DNA from: an uncultured Alphaproteobacteria bacterium
Lineage (GTDB): Bacteria > Pseudomonadota > Alphaproteobacteria > Rhizobiales > Xanthobacteraceae
NCBI GenBank assembly: GCA_963828625.1
Contig: CAWHEX010000011.1
Coordinates: forward strand, 647,041 to 711,040
Direction of reading: 5' to 3'
Length of the DNA: 64,000 nt
This document shows, in pieces, positions 3,485-26,333 of the stretch. A program made the translations under genes and the position numbers. Position 1 is the stretch's first letter; every line of letters begins with the position of its first letter. A model generated the notes under the pieces. The model was not told where the DNA came from. It saw only the letters and a list, made by a program, of their open reading frames with translations, and ran no database searches.

Positions 3485-4231
3485 ATGACCGGCGAAAAGA
3501 AACCCCGATCACGCTTCGTCGGCCTGCTCGGCCAGTTCGCGTCCATCGTCGTCATGGTGCTGCTGATCAAGACGGTGGCGGCGGAGGCCTACTACGTGCC
3601 GTCCGGCTCGATGCTGCCGAGCCTGCTGATCGGCGATCAGCTGATGGTCTCGAAATTCCCGTACGGCTACAGCCGCTATTCGATGCCGGTGCCGCTCGCG
3701 CCCGCGTCGGAGGAGCGATTGCTCGGGCGGCTGCCGCAATACGGCGACGTCGTGGTGTTTCGCCTGCCGCGCGATCCGGACCAGACCTGGGTCAAGCGCG
3801 TGGTCGGGCTGCCGGGCGACCGCGTGCAGATGCGCGACGGGCGGCTGTGGGTGAATGGTGCGATACTGCCGCTGCGCCGCGACGGCAGCGGCCTCGCGGA
3901 GGGCGACGTTACGGCGCCGCGCTTTGTCGAGACGCTCCCGAATGGGCACGAGCATCCGATCTTCAAGCTTCGCCGCAACGGCGAACTCGACGACACGCCG
4001 GTGTTCACGGTCCCGCCCGGCCAGATTTTCGTTATGGGAGACAACCGCGACAACTCGCTCGACAGCCGCGTCGCGCCGCGCGACGGCGGGGTCGGGACGG
4101 TGCCGGTGGAAAATCTCGTCGGGCGTGTCGATGCGATCCTCGGATCATGGGACCCGGCGGTGCGGCACGATCCGCTGTGGAGCTGGCCCGCGGGCCTGCG
4201 GCTTTCGCGGTTCTTCTCGCGCGTGGAGTGA
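3485..4231 (+). CDS. lepB: signal peptidase I
   Basis: Inside ORF 3446..4231. The ATG at 3485 gives MTGEKKPRSRF followed by a TM helix. Motifs present: SGSMLPSLLIGD, VVVFRLP..WVKRVVGLPGD, FVMGDNRDNSLDSR. Confidence 0.9.
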   Translation: MTGEKKPRSRFVGLLGQFASIVVMVLLIKTVAAEAYYVPSGSMLPSLLIGDQLMVSKFPYGYSRYSMPVPLAPASEERLLGRLPQYGDVVVFRLPRDPDQTWVKRVVGLPGDRVQMRDGRLWVNGAILPLRRDGSGLAEGDVTAPRFVETLPNGHEHPIFKLRRNGELDDTPVFTVPPGQIFVMGDNRDNSLDSRVAPRDGGVGTVPVENLVGRVDAILGSWDPAVRHDPLWSWPAGLRLSRFFSRVE

Positions 4232-4329
4232 CGCGTCCGCGCGGCGCAACCTTCTCGCCTGAGGAGCGACGCGAGCGGGGGTATCTGGCCGCGCGTTCGG
4301 TTGATAAAACCGTCTTCGGATCGACCACG

Positions 4330-4348
4330 CTCTCCCTTCAGGGGAGAG
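4330..4348. repeat. REP-like GC hairpin (ctctccc-ttca-ggggagag) downstream of lepB
   Basis: A 7-bp stem with a 4-nt loop is seen directly. It translates as ...SPFRGES... in a spurious ORF, a common repeat signature in this lineage. No T-tract follows, so it is not a canonical terminator. Confidence 0.4.
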
Positions 4349-4378
4349 AGTCTCATCGAGCTTCTGGAGAGAGTCTTC

Positions 4379-5361
4379 ATGCACATTCTGATTACCGGGG
4401 CGGCCGGCATGGTCGGGCGCAAGCTGACGGAGCGGCTGGTCGAGAAGCGGCCTGAACGGGGCGCCGATCGACAAGCTCACGTTGGTCGATGTGGTGAAGC
4501 CGGACGCGCCGGCAGGCTTTTCCGGCAAGGTCGACGCACAGGCGATGGACATCGCGGTGCAGGGCACCGGGCGCAAGCTCGTCGCCGGCCGGCCCGACGC
4601 GATCTTCCATCTCGCGGCGGTCGTCTCGGGCGAGGCCGAGACCGATTTCGAGAAGGGCTACCGCATCAACCTCGTGCCGTTCCACGAACTGCTCGAAGCA
4701 ATCCGTTGTGCGGGCGGCGGCTATCACCCCAAGCTGGTGTTCACGTCATCGATCGCGGTATTCGGCGCGCCGTTCCCGAGCGAGATTCCCGACGACTTTC
4801 ATCACACGCCGCTCACCTCCTACGGCGCGCAGAAGGGCATCTGCGAACTTCTGCTGGCCGACTACACGCGCAAGGGCTTTCTCGACGGCGTCGGCATCCG
4901 GCTTCCCACCATCTGCGTGCGGCCCGGCAAGCCGAACAAGGCGGCCTCGGGCTTCTTCTCCAACATCATCCGCGAGCCGTTGGCCGGGCACGAAGCGGTG
5001 CTTCCCGTGCAGGAAAGCGTGATGCACTGGCACGCCAGCCCGCGCTCCGCGGTCGGCTTCCTGATGCATGCGGCCTCGCTGTCGCGCGAGACGCTCGGGC
5101 CCCGCATCAACCTCACCATGCCGGGTGTCGCCTGCACGGTCGGCGAGCAGATCGGGGCGCTCGGCCGCGTGGCCGGGCGACAACGTCGTGGCGCGCATCC
5201 GCCGCGAGCCGGACGCCGCGATCATGAAGATCGTGTCGGGCTGGCCGACGCGGTTCGACGCCAAGCGCGCAAGGGCGCTCGGGTTCAAGGTCGAGGACAC
5301 ATTCGAGGAGATCATCCGGGTCCATGTCGACGACGAACTGGGGGGCCGGATCGCGGCGTAA
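4379..5361 (+). pseudogene. NAD-dependent epimerase/dehydratase family protein (D-erythronate dehydrogenase DenD-like), two frame breaks
   Basis: Frame 2 gives MHILITGAAGMVGRKLTERLVEK. Frame 0 gives ...IDKLTLVDVVKPDAPAGFSGKV...SSIAVFGAPFP...YGAQKGICELLLADY...ICVRPGKPNKAASGFFSNIIREPL (ORF 4482..5390). Frame 1 gives DNVVARIRREPDAAIMKIVSGWPTRFDAKRARALGF...ELGGRIAA* (ORF 5068..5361). The breaks are near 4450-4480 and near 5165. Confidence 0.75.
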
Positions 5362-21045: not shown

Positions 21046-21945
21046 TCAATCAACCGGATTTCGCCGCGGTCCCACCATGCGCTCGCGGTAGAGCAGGTAG
21101 AGGCCGGACGCGATCACGACCGCGACGCCGGACAGCGTCCAATTGTTAGGCTTGTCGCCGAACACAATATAGCCGAGCGCGATCATCCAGACGATCTCGG
21201 TGTAGATGAACGGCGCGAGCACCGAGGCGGGCGCGAGGCGATGGCCGATGATGAGCAGATAGTGGCCCATCCCGCTGAACAGGCCCATCGAGCACATCAG
21301 CAGAATGACCCGCCAGTCGCTCTGCGGCGTCCAGATAAACGGAAGGATCATTGTGGCGAGGATCGCGCCCACCAGATTGGAATAAAAGTTGGTCGTATCG
21401 GTGCTGTCGTGGCGCGAGAGGATGCGTGTCGAGATCGAGTAGATCGCGTAGCAAACCGCGCCGAGCGCCGAGAGGCCGGCCGCCCAATGGATGCCGCCCG
21501 CGCCCGGGCGCGTCACAAGCAGCACGCCGCAGAAACCGACGATGATCGCGGTCCAGCGCCGCCAGTGAATCCATTCGCCAAGGATCGGTCCGCCGAGCGC
21601 CGCCACGAGGAACGGCGTGCAAAAGATAATCGCGATGGCCTGGTCGAGCTGCAGGTAGCGCAACGCGAAGAAGTTGAGTGCCGTCGAGACGAACAATAGC
21701 GTGGAGCGGCCGAACTGAAGCCACGGCCGCGACGTGCGCATGACCTTTGGGTTGCCGATCGGGTTCGCGAGCGCGATGGCGAGTACGAATGCCGCCATGT
21801 AGCGCGCCCACACGACCTGCATCGTGTGCATGAAGTCGTTGAGATATTTCGCGACCGCGTCGTTGAACGCGAACAGCAGCACGGCTGCGCACATCAGTGC
21901 GATACCGGTCAGCCTGTCGCGTTGCGTTCGCTCCTGTGGCGTCAA
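21046..21945 (-). CDS. DMT superfamily (EamA/RhaT-type) transporter
   Basis: This is the C-terminal ~300 aa of ORF 21046..22725. It has ten hydrophobic segments (LTGIALMCAAVLLFAFNDAVAKY...). A likely TTG start at 21945 overlaps the upstream stop (TTGA). The exact start is uncertain. Confidence 0.75.
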   Translation of the reverse strand: MTPQERTQRDRLTGIALMCAAVLLFAFNDAVAKYLNDFMHTMQVVWARYMAAFVLAIALANPIGNPKVMRTSRPWLQFGRSTLLFVSTALNFFALRYLQLDQAIAIIFCTPFLVAALGGPILGEWIHWRRWTAIIVGFCGVLLVTRPGAGGIHWAAGLSALGAVCYAIYSISTRILSRHDSTDTTNFYSNLVGAILATMILPFIWTPQSDWRVILLMCSMGLFSGMGHYLLIIGHRLAPASVLAPFIYTEIVWMIALGYIVFGDKPNNWTLSGVAVVIASGLYLLYRERMVGPRRNPVD

Positions 21946-22697
21946 TACGTCGCCCGTCCGCCAGAAATGTCGAACACCGCACCGGTGGTGAAGGAGTTGT
22001 CCGCCGACGCGCACCAGGCGGCGAGCGATGCGATCTCCTCGACCTTGACGAACCGTGCGCGCGGAATCTTCGAGAGCATATAGTCGATATGCTCCTGCTT
22101 CATCTGGTCGAAGATCGCGGTTCTGGCGGCCGCCGGCGTGATGCAGTTCACCGCGATGTCGTGGCCGGCGAGTTCCTTGCCGAGCGACTTGGTCAGCGCG
22201 ATCACGCCGGCCTTGGACACCGAGTAGGCCGAGGCGTTCGGGTTGCCTTCCTTGCCGGCGATCGACGCGATGTTGACGATGCGGCCGTATTTCTGCGCGA
22301 TCATGCCGGGCGTCAGCGCGCGGCAGCAGTGGAACGGGCCGTCGAGATTGATGCGCATCACCTGCGCCCATTCCTCGACCGGATACTCCCATGTCGTGGC
22401 GTTCTTGCCCGCGATGCCGGCGTTGTTGACCAGAATGTCGACACGGCCGAGCGCCTTCACGGTGTCGTCGCGCGCGCGCTCGACGTCCTTCAGGTTCGTC
22501 ACGTCGCAGGCGACTGCGATCGCCTTGCCGCGGTTGTTCAGTTCGCCCACGGTCTTTTCGGCGAGCGCCTTGTCGCGATCCCAGATCGCGACCGTCGCGC
22601 CGGAATCGAGGAACCGCTCGACGATCGCGCGGCCGATGCCCTGCGCGCCGCCGGTGACGACGGCGTTGCGGTTGGCGAGATCGATCTTGTTGGGCAT
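21942..22697 (-). CDS. SDR family oxidoreductase
   Basis: 251-aa ORF with VTGGAQGIGRAI, NNAG and YSVSKAGV (YxxxK). Confidence 0.9.
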   Translation of the reverse strand: MPNKIDLANRNAVVTGGAQGIGRAIVERFLDSGATVAIWDRDKALAEKTVGELNNRGKAIAVACDVTNLKDVERARDDTVKALGRVDILVNNAGIAGKNATTWEYPVEEWAQVMRINLDGPFHCCRALTPGMIAQKYGRIVNIASIAGKEGNPNASAYSVSKAGVIALTKSLGKELAGHDIAVNCITPAAARTAIFDQMKQEHIDYMLSKIPRARFVKVEEIASLAAWCASADNSFTTGAVFDISGGRATY

Positions 22698-22824
22698 GGC
22701 GGATTTCCCCGGTTTGGCGCGGCATAACTACCGAAGGTCATTAGGTCACGCGAGAGGCGAATTGTCAGGGGTGGACTGTGGAACGCGGGGTTGAAGAAGC
22801 TTCGGATTTCCTCTAATCGTCCGC

Positions 22825-22900
22825 TTGCGGGGCCTGCGACGGTCGCCCCGTCAGGCTCGCAAGGCCCAAGTGCCGTCTCCTTCCCGAGAGGAGGAGACCT
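22825..22900 (+). promoter_or_regulatory. structured 5' leader, copy A (paralogous to 24074..24154), with an SD-sequestering hairpin
   Basis: About 90% identical to copy B. It forms hairpins CGGGGC(22828-33)/GCCCCG(22845-50) and GTCTCCT(22875-81)/AGGAGAC(22892-98). The second covers the GGAGG SD just upstream of the ATG at 22901. Confidence 0.55.
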
Positions 22901-23290
22901 ATGTTTGCGAGCCATTTTTCTTCTATAGCCGTGCTTTCGCTTGCCGCCTTTGTGTTCGTTTTCGGCACGTCGCCGATGAGCGCTGCTGCGGCTCCGCTTT
23001 GCAAACCGGCGCTCGCCTTCAAGGATGTCCGGTTCTCCGACACCCAGCCCGAGACGATGGAACGCCGCTGGACCGCGCTCCTGTCGGTCGACGCCTCGCG
23101 CTGCACGACGCCGTCCGGACGCTTCGAGATTCTGTTCTCGCGGCAAAAGGAAAACGGGCCTGAGGTGGATTTCATCGAGCAGTTCACCTGGAAGCCTGAC
23201 GCAGTGGAAGTCTCGATTGATTTCTGGGCCGACGAAGCCGTCGAGGGCTACGCACTCACCGGCATCGCGCCATGCCCGTGCCGTGAGTGA
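22901..23290 (+). CDS. hypothetical secreted Cys-containing protein
   Basis: 129-aa ORF with a signal peptide (MFASHFSSIAVLSLAAFVFVFGTSPMSAAAA). I do not recognise a family. Confidence 0.55.
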   Translation: MFASHFSSIAVLSLAAFVFVFGTSPMSAAAAPLCKPALAFKDVRFSDTQPETMERRWTALLSVDASRCTTPSGRFEILFSRQKENGPEVDFIEQFTWKPDAVEVSIDFWADEAVEGYALTGIAPCPCRE

Positions 23291-23300
23291 GGCGGCGGTC

Positions 23301-24056
23301 ATGGACGCAGTGACAATCGGCCTCTTCCTCGCGGCGGCGTTCTTCGGCGGCCTCGTCTCGGGGCTCTCGGGCTTCGCGATGGGACTCGTGGTGTCCGGCG
23401 TGTGGCTGCACATCATCACGCCGGAACAGAATGCGTTGCTGATCGTGTTGTGCGGGCTGGTCACGCAAGGCTCGGGAATCTGGCGCGTACGTCACGCGAT
23501 CAACTGGCGCACCGTTGCGCCATACATTGTTGGTGGAGCGATCGGCGTCGCCATCGGCACTGCGCTGCTGACGGCGATCGATCAAGGCACGCTGCGCATC
23601 ACGATGGCCGTGCTGCTGATCCTCTACAGCCTTTACGGCTTGCTGCGGCCGGCGCTTGGACCGGTGCGGGGCGGCGTTCCCGCCGAGTTTGGCGTCGGGA
23701 TAACGAATGGGCTGATCGGCGGGCTGACCGGATTGGGCGGCATCGCCATCACCATCTGGTGCCAATTGCGCGGCGGGCCGAAGGATGCACAGCGCGCGAT
23801 CTTCCAGCCGGTGATGTTCTCGACCTTCGCGATGGCGGCCGTCTCGCTTGGCATTGCGGGCGTGTACACGGTCGAAGCCATGAAGCTCTATGCGCTGGCG
23901 CTTCCCGCGCTGGTCATCGGCATCTGGGCCGGGCTGAAGCTCTACGGCAAACTCGACGACACGGCGTTCCGCCGCGTGATTCTGGTCCTGCTGCTTGCGT
24001 CCGGCGTTTCGCTGATGGTGCCGAGCGTGATGCGGTGGACATCCTTGCTGAACTGA
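23301..24056 (+). CDS. TauE/SafE (TSUP) family sulfite/organosulfonate exporter-type membrane protein
   Basis: Inside ORF 23025..24056, starting at MDAVTIGLFLAAAFFGGLVSGLSGFAMG. It has 7-8 TM helices and an internal repeat (..GITNGLIGGLTGLGG..). Confidence 0.75.
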   Translation: MDAVTIGLFLAAAFFGGLVSGLSGFAMGLVVSGVWLHIITPEQNALLIVLCGLVTQGSGIWRVRHAINWRTVAPYIVGGAIGVAIGTALLTAIDQGTLRITMAVLLILYSLYGLLRPALGPVRGGVPAEFGVGITNGLIGGLTGLGGIAITIWCQLRGGPKDAQRAIFQPVMFSTFAMAAVSLGIAGVYTVEAMKLYALALPALVIGIWAGLKLYGKLDDTAFRRVILVLLLASGVSLMVPSVMRWTSLLN

Positions 24057-24073
24057 GCGCCATCGAATAATGT

Positions 24074-24154
24074 TTGCGTACGGGGCTCACGACGGTCGCC
24101 CCGACAGGCTCGCAAGGCCCAAGCGCCGTCTCCTTCCCGAGAGGAGGAGACCCT
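24074..24154 (+). promoter_or_regulatory. structured 5' leader, copy B (paralogous to 22825..22900), upstream of the rhodanese-ChrB gene
   Basis: It has the same two hairpins and the same SD-sequestering stem as copy A. The identity continues into the first six codons (MLASYF versus MFASHF). Confidence 0.55.
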
Positions 24155-24988
24155 ATGCTTGCGAGCTATTTCGTTACACCCCATGAACTCTGGTCGCGTA
24201 TCGGCACCCCCGACGCGCCGATGATTCTCGATGTGTGCCGCCGGCAAATCTACGATGAAGGTCCGGGGGTGATTCCGACAGCACAGTGGCGGCAGCCCGA
24301 AACCTATCTCGATTGGCTGCCCGGCCTACCGATCGATCGGCCGATCGTGCTCGCCTGCCGTTATGGGCATAATTTGAGCCAGATGATCGCCGCGGAGTTG
24401 CGCGGGCGCGGTGTGTCAGCGCAGGTGCTGGAAGGCGGCCGCGTGGCCTGGAGCGAAGCTGGTTTGCCGCTGATCACGAAGGTGGCGCTCGACCGCTTTG
24501 TGCCGAAACGCCCAAGCCTGTGGGTGACCCGCCGGCGGCCGAAGATCGACCGCGTGGCGTGCCCGTGGCTGATCCGGCGCTTCATCGATCCGCAGGCGCG
24601 CATCCTCTTTGTCGACCCGCCGGAAGTCAAAAACATAGCGGCTGACATCGGCGCGATCCCGTTCGACATCGAGGATATCGAGATCAGCCACGAGGGCGAG
24701 CGCTGCTCGTTCGACACGATGCTCAGGGTCTTCGGGCTGGAGAGCGACCCGCACCTTGCGCGACTCGCGCTGATCGTGCGCGGCGCCGACACGGCGCGGA
24801 ATGACCTGGCGCCTGAAGCCGCCGGTCTGCACGCGATCTCGCTCGGCCTGTCGGCGCTCGCGGGTGACGACGATCACGGGATGATCGCGCGTGGCTTCAT
24901 GGTCTACGATGCGCTGTTCGCTTGGGCGCGACACGCCGCGTCGGAGCGGCACAATTGGCCCAAGACCGCGCAAGACCGGGCGGCGTAA
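24155..24988 (+). CDS. rhodanese domain fused to a ChrB C-terminal (chromate-resistance) domain
   Basis: Inside ORF 24074..24988. The N-terminal ~110 aa are rhodanese-like with the active-site loop LACRYGHNLS. The C-terminal part has WVTRRRPKIDRVACPWLIRRFIDPQARILFV...IPFDIEDIEISHEGERCSFDTMLRVFGL, typical of the ChrB C-terminal domain. Confidence 0.75.
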   Translation: MLASYFVTPHELWSRIGTPDAPMILDVCRRQIYDEGPGVIPTAQWRQPETYLDWLPGLPIDRPIVLACRYGHNLSQMIAAELRGRGVSAQVLEGGRVAWSEAGLPLITKVALDRFVPKRPSLWVTRRRPKIDRVACPWLIRRFIDPQARILFVDPPEVKNIAADIGAIPFDIEDIEISHEGERCSFDTMLRVFGLESDPHLARLALIVRGADTARNDLAPEAAGLHAISLGLSALAGDDDHGMIARGFMVYDALFAWARHAASERHNWPKTAQDRAA

Positions 24989-24989
24989 G

Positions 24990-26333
24990 ATGGCGGTGCA
25001 AACAGAAACTGTGCCGGCGGAAGCCGCGGCCGCGCCTACCTTCGGTGAGGCGTTCCGCGTCTGGCTGAAAATAGGCTGCATCAACTTCGGCGGGCCGGCC
25101 GGGCAGATCGCCATGATGCACCGCATGCTGGTCGACGAGAAAAAATGGATCGATGAGCCGCGTTTCCTGCACGCGCTCAATTTCTGCATGCTGCTGCCGG
25201 GCCCAGAGGCGCAGAAACTCGCGACCTATATCGGCTGGGCGCTGCACGGGGTGCGCGGCGGGCTCGCGGCCGGCATCCTGTTCGTGCTGCCGGGCGCGCT
25301 GTTCATGCTGGGCCTGAGCCTGCTCTATGCGCTGGGGCAAGGTGTCACGTGGGTCGAAGGTGTGCTGTTCGGCATCAAGGCGGCGGTGCTGGTGATTGTC
25401 GTCGAGGCGTTGATCCGCATCGGAAGGCGCGCACTCAAGACGCGACTCCTGATGGCGCTCGCTGGCGCTGCGTTCGCGGGCATTTTCTTTCTCAACGCGC
25501 CGTTCCCGCTGATCGTCGCCGCCGCAGCGCTGATCGGCTATCTCGTGGCGCGTACGCGCCCCGAGCAGATGGGGCTGAAGAACGAAGCCATCGAGGTGAC
25601 ACCGCCCGCGCCGGACCGCTGGCGGCAGTTCTTTCTCGCGGCAGTCGTCGGACTGATCGTGTGGTGGGCGCCGGTCGCGCTCGCGGCGCTGGCGCTCGGG
25701 CCGGACCATGTGCTGGTCACCATCGGGACGTTCTTTTCTAAATTGGCGGTGGTGAGCTTCGGTGGTGCCTACGCGTTGCTTGCCTACATGGCGCAGCAGG
25801 CGGTCGAGACGCATCACTGGATGACCGCGCCCGAAATGGTCGACGGGCTGGGCCTGGCCGAGACCACGCCGGGGCCGCTCATTCTCGTGACGCAGTTCGT
25901 CGGCTTCCTCGCGGCGTTCCGCGATGCCGCACCGTTCTCAGCCGTGATGGCCGGTGTGCTCGGCGCCGCGATGACCACGTGGGTGACGTTCACACCCTCG
26001 ATGCTCTGGATCTTCGCGGGCGCGCCGTTCGTCGAGCAACTGCGCGGTAATCGCCGGCTGTCAGGCGCGCTTGCGGCGATCACCGCCGCCGTCGTCGGCG
26101 TCATCCTCAACCTCACGGTCTGGTTCGCGCTGCATGTGCTGTTCGGCCGGGTGACGGAAGTGCGAGCGGGGTGGCTGCGCTGGTTTGCGTTCGATCCGCT
26201 CTCGCTCGACCTGAAGGCGGCGGCACTCGCCGCAATTGCCGCCGTGCTGGCGTTCGGCCTGCACCGCAGCCTGATCGAGACCGTCGCCGTGATGGCGGCG
26301 CTCGGCGTCGCGGTGAAATACGCGCTCGGCTGA
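24990..26333 (+). CDS. chrA: chromate ion transporter (CHR family, two-domain)
   Basis: Inside ORF 24891..26333, starting at MAVQTETV. The first half has CINFGGPAGQIAMMHRMLVDEKKWI and the second half has VVSFGGAYALLAYMAQQAVE. Confidence 0.9.
   Translation: MAVQTETVPAEAAAAPTFGEAFRVWLKIGCINFGGPAGQIAMMHRMLVDEKKWIDEPRFLHALNFCMLLPGPEAQKLATYIGWALHGVRGGLAAGILFVLPGALFMLGLSLLYALGQGVTWVEGVLFGIKAAVLVIVVEALIRIGRRALKTRLLMALAGAAFAGIFFLNAPFPLIVAAAALIGYLVARTRPEQMGLKNEAIEVTPPAPDRWRQFFLAAVVGLIVWWAPVALAALALGPDHVLVTIGTFFSKLAVVSFGGAYALLAYMAQQAVETHHWMTAPEMVDGLGLAETTPGPLILVTQFVGFLAAFRDAAPFSAVMAGVLGAAMTTWVTFTPSMLWIFAGAPFVEQLRGNRRLSGALAAITAAVVGVILNLTVWFALHVLFGRVTEVRAGWLRWFAFDPLSLDLKAAALAAIAAVLAFGLHRSLIETVAVMAALGVAVKYALG

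Follow-up and report, generated by a model that had tools for sequence, protein, structure and literature searches.

Paired leader RNAs of a candidate third chrB subtype, predicted to act as default-OFF translational switches in an alphaproteobacterial chromate-resistance cluster

Two copies of a structured leader of about 90 nt lie on one contig (CAWHEX010000011.1) of an uncultured bacterium of the Xanthobacteraceae, within a stretch of 64,000 nucleotides that we refer to as the window. Copy A precedes genes for a small secreted cysteine-containing protein and a TauE/SafE-family exporter, and copy B precedes genes for a rhodanese-ChrB_C fusion (RhoChrB) and the ChrA chromate transporter. Our analysis makes it probable that both copies are riboswitch-like translational leaders, off by default and turned on by an inducer, which form a third subtype of the chrB RNA family. 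A preliminary description of this DNA had proposed a shared, chrB-related, cis-acting structured RNA that buries the Shine-Dalgarno (SD) sequence and co-regulates the two operons, and the computational tests support that proposal. The two described motifs, chrB-a and chrB-b, are related to one another and occur in the 5' untranslated regions (UTRs) of several classes of chromate-resistance genes in alpha-proteobacteria; Weinberg et al. proposed in 2017 that they are chromate sensors (PMC5737381).

The copies lie 1253 nt apart on the forward strand, and over the approximately 90 nt compared they differ by seven substitutions and one 1-nt indel. Their identity begins abruptly at CGGGGC and decays past about codon 6 of the open reading frame (ORF). 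The preliminary description had been accurate on these points: it gave a repeat of about 90 nt with about eight differences, in the same orientation and 1.25 kb apart, with identity running through the start codon into six codons. It had also placed the substitutions in loops and linkers, which holds for all but two within the ORF; these are G-C/G.U exchanges inside a leader-codon helix that had been missed. A 33-nt core pattern allowing up to three mismatches found copies A and B only within the 64 kb, where shuffled sequences lead one to expect none, and the folding of each copy beat that of all 200 of its dinucleotide shuffles (z = -3.3 for A and -2.9 for B). The layout of the two copies is as follows.

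22828-22917, forward strand: leader copy A, a repeat sharing about 90 nt with copy B
22828-33 paired with 22845-50, forward strand: P1 hairpin of copy A, CGGGGC-N11-GCCCCG (covariance-model alignment, folding)
22838-43, forward strand: 5' strand of the predicted pseudoknot of copy A, GACGGU, in the P1 loop
22854-57 paired with 22863-66, forward strand: P2 hairpin of copy A, GGCU-CGCAA-GGCC, which Rfam aligns to the P2 of chrB-b
22854-22863, forward strand: 5' strand of the predicted long-range (leader-codon) helix of copy A, GGCUCGCAAG, sharing P2 positions
22867-22870, forward strand: invariant CAAG linker of copy A, common to the chrB-b consensus
22872-22877, forward strand: 3' strand of the pseudoknot of copy A, GCCGUC, pairing with 22838-43 and overlapping the SD hairpin by 3 nt
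22875-83 paired with 22890-98, forward strand: SD-sequestering hairpin of copy A, 9 bp, GUCUCCUUC-N6-GGAGGAGAC
22890-96, forward strand: Shine-Dalgarno sequence GGAGGAG of copy A, inside the SD hairpin
22901, forward strand: start codon of the gene behind copy A (gene call)
22904-22913, forward strand: 3' strand of the leader-codon helix of copy A, UUUGCGAGCC, codons 2-5, pairing with 22854-63 (folding)
22914-22925, forward strand: U-rich tract of copy A, AUUUUUCUUCUA, after the leader-codon helix
24081-24171, forward strand: leader copy B, a repeat sharing about 90 nt with copy A
24081-86 paired with 24098-103, forward strand: P1 hairpin of copy B (covariance-model alignment, folding)
24091-96, forward strand: 5' strand of the pseudoknot of copy B (folding comparison)
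24107-24119, forward strand: P2 hairpin of copy B, of which 24107-16 double as the 5' strand of the leader-codon helix
24125-24130, forward strand: 3' strand of the pseudoknot of copy B, GCCGUC (strand position relative to canonical chrB hits)
24128-24151, forward strand: SD-sequestering hairpin of copy B, 9 bp (folding)
24158-24167, forward strand: 3' strand of the leader-codon helix of copy B, CUUGCGAGCU, codons 2-5 (folding), in which both differences from copy A are G-C/G.U exchanges

The two hairpins described earlier thus both exist, but the second has 9 bp and not 7. The GACGG:CCGTC pairing suggested at that time is indeed complementary, but it spans 6 bp, and its 3' strand overlaps the first 3 nt of that hairpin.

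To place the element among relatives, 20 genomic loci (L001-L020) were fetched by way of an alignment of homologues of the 129-aa protein encoded behind copy A. These loci come from soil metagenome-assembled genomes (MAGs) of Hyphomicrobiales, Xanthobacteraceae, and unclassified Alphaproteobacteria, plus one of the Steroidobacteraceae; L001, L002, L004, and L006 share synteny with the window as well as its leader, which most of them have twice. A context-free metagenome scan, whose pattern fixed only P1, CAG, CCAAG, and the two pseudoknot strands, contributed 59 further soil contigs, for a total of 81 copies of this variant (74-75 of them unique) in about 65 alphaproteobacterial contigs from soil. 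Without exception, the 81 copies lie directly 5' of an ORF and point the same way, and the positions of SD and start codon are constant. The ORFs encode rhodanese-ChrB in 48 cases by BLAST, with three more cut or frameshifted chrB genes recognised by their N-termini; 25 encode the small Cys protein, four are mini-ORFs, and one is another gene. The core remains near-invariant over roughly 65 contigs despite diverged flanks and coding sequences. A structure-descriptor scan returned 188 hits versus 9 in reversed-sequence controls; in the window it detected only the two known copies, and in L003, L005, L007, and L019 it detected sub-threshold chrB-type leaders directly 5' of the small-protein gene. 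No match to the element was found by BLASTN among PLSDB plasmids.

This distribution bears on the reading that the element is a dispersed repeat (REP/MITE), a possibility that the preliminary description had itself raised, or a recent duplication without function. The dispersed repeat was ruled out: the element is gene-specific, with only two copies in the 64 kb of the window, and the metagenome copies are all gene-proximal, found only 5' of chromate-cluster genes and in fixed orientation. A hint of recent gene conversion does come from the variable hairpin-loop segment, which is 0.96 identical between A and B and at most 0.92 identical between either of them and copies elsewhere, and copies on one contig tend towards a common platform type. 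These comparisons suggest that homogenisation within the genome accounts for part of the A/B identity. With a core conserved across so many diverged surroundings, a functionless repeat or duplication is scarcely credible.

Membership in the chrB family was assessed with Rfam covariance models, a possible link to chrB motifs having been mentioned in the preliminary description. At the gathering thresholds neither leader copy in the window was reported; in a permissive cmscan both matched both models over their full length, chrB-b (RF03086, positions 1-49 of 49) with 31.0 bits for A and 30.6 bits for B, and chrB-a (RF03078, positions 1-80 of 80) with 30.0 and 31.5 bits, respectively. The order of elements in chrB-b (P1 GGGG...CCCC, P2, CAAG, 3' tail) is found in the alignment and is conserved in 74 distinct copies. 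As in the rest of the family, the P1 loop can form a pseudoknot with a strand past the linker, here GACGGU:GCCGUC; as in chrB-a, a second hairpin holds the SD just before the AUG (22875-98 and 24128-51); and the 81 copies, on contigs of Hyphomicrobiales, Xanthobacteraceae, or Alphaproteobacteria MAGs, immediately precede RhoChrB, the small Cys protein and its TauE partner, a ChrA-coupled mini-ORF, or in one case another gene, in agreement with the siting known for chrB in the 5' UTRs of chromate-resistance genes in alpha-proteobacteria. Because the Rfam thresholds were missed while every architectural feature of chrB is present, we file the element as a third subtype beside chrB-a and chrB-b, neither as a member of those two nor as a new class. 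On this view the chrB family is broader than its two Rfam models, with the window element as one well-populated subtype.

The predicted structure was then compared across the 74 distinct copies, with slid partners as the control. P1, P2, and the SD hairpin were together 99.0% paired, versus 37-63% with slid partners. In P1, 98% of cells were paired and the outer pair occurs as C-G, U-A, or U.G; P2 was 99.7% paired, with a closing pair of U.G (56 copies), U-A (12), or C-G (1) and a loop variable in both sequence and length; and the SD hairpin was 99.5% paired, with six of its nine pairs varying one-sidedly, always to G.U. Nearly all helix changes were one-sided and G.U-compatible on the + strand (C-G to U.G in P1; A to G or C to U in the SD hairpin), a pattern that in these alignments is the signature of a + strand RNA and not of a DNA palindrome.

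Since the metagenome search pattern had fixed both strands of the pseudoknot, the case for this pairing is built on comparison between subtypes. Rivas (2020) used covariation (CaCoFold) to reveal an additional pseudoknot helix in chrB RNA (PMC7657543), and the pairing guessed at in the preliminary description turns out to be that published helix. Its 3' strand begins 1 nt past a (C/G)AA(G/A) linker in all subtypes, a position that the variant shares with 14 canonical hits whose paired sequences differ from its own, and at least five complementary pairs of sequences occupy this position:

Variant: GACGGU:(G/A)CCGUC
L009: (C)GCAG(A/G):UCUGC(G)
L002 and L004: UCAGC:GCUGG
L008, L013, and L017: (A)GCAGC:GCUGC(U)
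chrB-a: CGCGAU:AUCGCG

In L019, a close relative of the variant, the changes seen in P1, in P2, and in the pseudoknot (GACGAC:GUUGUC) are compensated. The L019 leader (L019:1461-1508, directly 5' of the small-protein gene; P1 UCGGGC/GCCCGA, P2 GCUGC-CAU-GCAGC) is a further subtype that falls under all Rfam thresholds. Compensatory change among homologues, which the preliminary description had looked to as a check, is thus present in the pseudoknot across subtypes but sparse within this one.

Anchoring 71 upstream regions on P1 revealed a conserved pair of boxes, TTG(A/C)NN-N16/17-TA(A/T)NNN, that ends 8-9 nt before the GGGG; a generic sigma-70 consensus scan of 22600-24300 returned no promoter. 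The boxes assigned to the two copies are:

22791-22796, forward strand: predicted -35 box of copy A, TTGAAG (TTG(A/C)NN is found at this distance before about 70 copies)
22814-22819, forward strand: predicted -10 box of copy A, TAATCG, with a 17-nt spacer and a predicted start at about 22825-22828
24045-24050, forward strand: predicted -35 box of copy B, TTGCTG, within the final codons of the TauE gene
24068-24073, forward strand: predicted -10 box of copy B, TAATGT, with a predicted start at about 24079-24081

Transcription would then start 1-4 nt before P1. A start downstream of the element, which the preliminary description had seen as fatal to its proposal, is not what this promoter-like pair predicts. 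The same location directly downstream of a predicted promoter, with inverted repeats at +1 to +50, could also befit a DNA operator bound by a transcription factor such as ChrB, given that full-length ChrB binds DNA and regulates a chr promoter (PMC3817168). We consider such an operator very improbable: the + strand G.U pairs that make up the overwhelming share of helix changes would be A.C mismatches on the other strand, meaningless in duplex DNA, and the pseudoknot, SD masking, and codon pairing make sense in RNA only. Moreover, in O. tritici the operator consists of an AT-rich repeat lying across the -10 region, in contrast to the GC-rich element described here (PMC3817168), and the local ChrB is without the N-terminal part.

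The feature that most distinguishes the variant is the helix between the leader and its coding sequence. In the minimum free energy structure of both copies, codons 2-5 are paired with GGCUCGCAAG, and the SD hairpin lies enclosed by this helix; its 7-bp core, GGCUCGC:GCGAGCY, is 94% paired across the 74 copies. The strongest evidence for the helix is the freezing of synonymous sites. Among 41 distinct chrB N-termini, alanine is encoded by GCG in 41 of 41 and serine by AGC in 38 of 39 (AGT in the other), and codon entropy is 0.5-1.7 bits at Ala, Ser, Pro, Leu, Gly, and Thr positions elsewhere that are just as conserved. Since RhoChrB genes behind canonical chrB-a or chrB-b leaders begin otherwise (MDRSTP..., MPAATS...), the box in codons 2-5 goes with the leader subtype, not with the protein. 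Variants of the helix recur: a subclass beginning MASTSFF has a 14-bp helix with an A-U/G.U/G-C series at one pair; complementarity is provided by CUCC(G)AGCY with GGCUCAGGAG in L025, L036, and L055 and by GCUUGGGC with GCCCAAGC in L057; and in the chrB-b leaders of TauE genes the P2 3' strand CCAUCC pairs with AUG-GAUGG (-15 to -24 kcal/mol versus -9 to -14 for shuffled sequences). The running of A/B identity into the ORF is, on this evidence, the product of the leader-codon helix and of intragenomic homogenisation.

Directly behind the 3' strand of this helix lies a U-rich tract. Phenylalanine is encoded by TTT in 99 of 116 cases (85%) within codons 1-10 versus 52 of 366 (14%) later (p about 1e-45), and 53 of the 74 copies have at least six T in the 9 nt after the box, against a background of 17%; the tract is, judging from this codon bias, under selection at the nucleotide level. 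Together with a lower stem that is GC-rich and 7-14 bp long, it raises the question of transcription attenuation, in which the OFF fold and the U-run in codons 5-8 would be an intrinsic terminator, the sensor fold an antiterminator, and SD masking secondary. This seems to us improbable. The stem closes an interior of about 40 nt that holds a second hairpin, which is atypical of an intrinsic terminator; the two window copies have only a weak U-run (CAUUUUUCU and UAUUUCGUU), and some subclasses (L025, L036, L029) have none; canonical chrB-a and chrB-b mask the SD without any U-run; and a U-rich, unstructured start region could equally aid ribosome loading. A simple terminator scan flagged the SD hairpin of copy A only. 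The contribution of the U-run may be additional termination while the leader is OFF, or easier ribosome loading once it is ON.

Folding energies set out the two states of the favoured translational switch. The OFF fold (P1, leader-codon helix, and SD hairpin) has -40.6 kcal/mol in copy A and -40.8 in copy B, and the sensor-type fold (P1 and P2 with the SD hairpin) has -29.6 and -29.9 kcal/mol; the pseudoknot adds roughly -6 kcal/mol at the cost of three SD-hairpin pairs. The folds are mutually exclusive: P2 and the leader-codon helix compete for the same nucleotides, as do the pseudoknot strand and the base of the SD hairpin, and an analogous competition is found in TauE-type chrB-b leaders. 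We read the leader as OFF by default because the OFF fold is far more stable than the sensor-type fold, and as an inducer-ON translational switch because the module of P1, P2, and pseudoknot is incompatible with the leader-codon helix and the SD-hairpin base. Each copy would be the 5' leader of its own transcript, the RNA starting a few nt before P1. The conserved 5' half (P1, P2, CAAG, and the 6-bp pseudoknot) would serve as the sensor and the 3' half as the expression platform. In the OFF state the RNA would form a long interrupted hairpin in which GUCUCCUUC pairs with the SD strand GGAGGAGAC and the P2 segment pairs with codons 2-5, followed by the U-rich tract. Because the sensor fold takes up P2 as well as 3 nt at the start of the anti-SD strand, its formation would exclude the codon helix, weaken the SD helix, and expose the start region. 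The sensor fold would be stabilised by an inducing signal, presumably one tied to stress from chromate or oxyanions, and translation of the small Cys protein and TauE would thereby be turned on together with that of RhoChrB and ChrA. An inducer-ON switch is in keeping with a resistance determinant that is inducible. The analysis shows the repeat itself, its likeness to the chrB family, its architecture and gene specificity, the constraint on the codons at the nucleotide level, and the stability of the OFF fold; we infer where transcription starts, that the switch works towards ON, and that there is a ligand, with its identity.

Several results weigh against this interpretation. Copies A and B look homogenised, so their mutual identity alone carries little weight. 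Both missed the curated gathering scores (36.5 for chrB-b and 43.9 for chrB-a), as did all of the more than 30 variant copies scanned (in the window, L001-L020, and 20 metagenome contigs), and canonical chrB-b hits in the same loci were reported at threshold. Two-sided changes were limited to one pair in the P1/P2/SD set and three in the leader-codon set; with so conserved a subtype such covariation is rare, and in the metagenome set the fixed search pattern left P1 and the pseudoknot strands no room to vary. The leader-codon duplex energy was -17.1 kcal/mol versus -15.1 for a GC-rich downstream control, the 14-bp helix of the MASTSFF subclass did not differ significantly from its shuffle control (154/500), and swapping own for foreign partners between subclasses gave no clear separation. 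Because formal covariation is sparse and that control not significant, we rely on synonymous-site freezing and on the cross-subtype comparison. As to the switch itself, the pseudoknot removes only three of the nine SD-hairpin pairs, which makes the opening of the SD a prediction, and, kinetic control aside, the gap of roughly 11 kcal/mol between the folds is a large one for a small ligand to bridge. Lastly, chromate and related compounds showed no in vitro binding to chrB RNAs (PMC5737381).

The last two points would be less troubling if the same RNA were flipped by a protein, with the leader acting as a protein-bound translational operator and the rhodanese-ChrB_C protein as the candidate binder. 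A small ligand, as in a classical riboswitch, is our first choice for the signal; a protein of the RhoChrB kind is unlikely but a serious rival. The fold gap would be bridged more easily by a protein, all three leader subtypes precede rhodanese-ChrB_C genes, and the window protein has ChrB_C and no hit to the ChrB N-terminal domain in a domain search. In O. tritici, C-terminal residues are needed for chromate induction, and full ChrB is a chromate-responsive regulator (PMC3817168). Conversely, ChrB_C and rhodanese domains are not known to bind RNA. A near-invariant stretch of about 50 nt with a compact pseudoknot is typical of small-molecule aptamers. In addition, chrB-type leaders occur without a RhoChrB gene within 8 kb in L003, L005, L007, L008, L013, and L017, and RhoChrB genes occur without detectable chrB RNA in L010, L014, and L015. 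More doubtful is the general form of the idea, in which chrB-family leaders are the RNA partners of the rhodanese-ChrB_C proteins behind them and not chromate aptamers. Were it true, ChrB_C would sense chromate (or a sulfur or oxyanion signal relayed by rhodanese), bind the P1-P2-pseudoknot module, and free the SD and codons; an RNA operator would have replaced the DNA-binding N-terminal half of classical ChrB in these alpha-proteobacteria; and the absence of chromate binding by the RNA alone in vitro would be explained.

The genes behind the two copies had been called correctly in the preliminary description:

22901-23290, forward strand: gene for the 129-aa secreted 4-Cys protein, putatively controlled by copy A (signal peptide, homologue alignment)
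23301-24056, forward strand: TauE/SafE-family exporter gene, 10 nt past the preceding stop and without a leader of its own here
24155-24988, forward strand: rhodanese and ChrB_C fusion gene, putatively controlled by copy B (domain hits)
24990-26333, forward strand: chrA chromate transporter gene, starting 1 nt after the chrB stop

For the 129-aa protein 293 homologues were found, nearly all of them unnamed metagenome proteins, and its family has no Pfam match. Family members share a signal peptide and four invariant cysteines, including those of a C-terminal CPC. A confident structural model (pLDDT >90 for the mature part) shows a 7-strand beta-sandwich, for which Foldseek against the PDB found generic beta-sandwich likeness only (E >=7e-3, TM <0.45) and no significant neighbour. 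Because its gene regularly carries a chrB-type leader directly 5', or sits in an operon behind one, the protein is probably a periplasmic component of the chromate response.

A duplication of the leader onto a TauE operon, which the preliminary description had singled out as new, is not special here, since a leader precedes the small Cys protein in 25 of the 81 copies; in sister genomes, TauE carries a canonical chrB-b leader of its own. Such TauE leaders score 44-52 bits (L002:8431-8482, L004:8328-8379, L033, L036, L046, L051, L077) and in sister genomes sit between two variant copies, making three chrB-type leaders per cluster; the window TauE gene is without one. Canonical chrB-b or chrB-a precedes RhoChrB in L009 and L020. 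In three loci (L008:6451-6506, L013:6451-6504, L017:6392-6446) a chrB-b-type leader is followed by a MatE-family exporter gene and then the small-protein gene, which points to MatE as a further gene class under chrB-type RNA, and at L011:6401-6454 the descriptor scan placed a similar, sub-threshold leader in the position equivalent to those MatE leaders. L009, a gammaproteobacterial (Steroidobacteraceae) MAG, has a 62-bit chrB-b (L009:3913-3959) before an ORF (3990-5030, 347 aa) with weak beta-propeller/glutaminyl-cyclase-like Pfam hits, possibly another regulon member. No chrB-type RNA was detected, by Rfam gathering threshold or descriptor, in L010, L012, L014, and L015, where the small-protein gene lies by rhodanese-ChrB and ChrB_C-only genes; these clusters have either further subtypes that escape detection or different regulation.

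Two observations concern what follows the leader. In L026:1326-1409, L049, L067, and L076 the variant precedes a conserved mini-ORF of 27-29 codons (MFLTRCLADPPYR...PLQ.TR.GV.K), with a stop codon that overlaps, in GTGA, the GTG at which a ChrA transporter gene begins; it looks like a leader cistron that would pass translational control to chrA. Some small-protein genes open with up to about 17 chrB codons (M.AS.F.SPQELWSRI...) before the signal peptide (P0008, P0013, and P0024; L002:8001-8411; L064), and the N-terminus of P0060 is that of the MatE gene behind chrB-b in L008. From these N-termini, leader and first codons seem to have been transplanted jointly between genes.

Other features lie nearby. 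A box, GAATTGTCAGGGG (22760-22772), together with 22737-22742, is conserved upstream of the first leader in about 30 loci; read on the minus strand as CTGACA-N17-CCTAAT, it is likely the promoter of a divergent short-chain dehydrogenase gene (21942-22697, minus strand). The sole Rfam family at gathering score in the window is the alphaproteobacterial small RNA (sRNA) ar45 (RF02347; 38270-38449, minus strand; 62.4 bits versus a gathering score of 40). The Rhizobiales sRNA Atu_At1 was found at L075:1964-2075 (minus strand, 76.5 bits), about 200 nt upstream of a variant leader.

These findings extend a known family and do not overturn current ideas about it. chrB is an orphan riboswitch candidate whose 2017 ligand tests were negative (PMC5737381), and our literature search found no work after 2017 on its ligand or on further subtypes. 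The variant would be a well-populated class in soil bacteria, overlooked by the Rfam models. What it appears to add to the family is the leader-codon helix, the U-run, predicted promoters, a larger regulon, and the mobility of leader plus codons. A defined default-OFF platform (SD hairpin, leader-codon helix, and U-run) eases the design of reporter and probing experiments. The regulon, enlarged by a secreted 4-Cys beta-sandwich family, TauE-type and MatE-type exporters, and a leader cistron coupled to chrA, narrows the candidate signal to chromate or sulfur-oxyanion stress at the envelope. With leader and first codons moving jointly, annotation pipelines will meet odd common N-termini (MFASH, MLASY, MSSASFF) on unrelated proteins.

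Of the known systems, chrB-b is similar in its P1 (GGGG/CCCC with a loop of about 11 nt), CAG-type junction, short P2, invariant CAAG, and strand complementary to the P1 loop; it too occupies chromate-cluster 5' UTRs in alpha-proteobacteria, and it shares operon clusters with the variant. It differs in its pseudoknot, GCAG(A/C):(G/U)CUGC where the variant has GACGGU:GCCGUC, and in its P2, GACGG/CCGUC or GAUGG/CCAUC where the variant has GGCU/GGCC, whereas the platform of the variant reaches codons 2-5 and is followed by a U-run. With chrB-a the variant shares a P2 sequence of the same type (GGCUGCGGCC versus GGCUCGCAAGGCC), an SD-sequestering hairpin that starts within the final nt of the pseudoknot strand, and a position before rhodanese-ChrB_C (L020); chrB-a has a different pseudoknot (CGCGAU:AUCGCG) and a GAAA tail in place of CAAG, and no leader-codon helix was seen in two chrB-a examples. 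The fluoride riboswitch (crcB motif) is likewise a small pseudoknotted leader RNA of anion-exporter and stress genes, proposed or shown to be ON upon accumulation of a toxic anion; it is a functional analogue only, the window copies having no Rfam hit to the crcB model. The ChrB system of TnOtChr in O. tritici comprises the same chrB and chrA genes and is chromate-inducible (PMC3817168). There, however, a protein binds an AT-rich DNA repeat in the promoter, whereas in the window the ChrB homologue is without the N-terminal part and the element is GC-rich, structured, and putatively transcribed into RNA.

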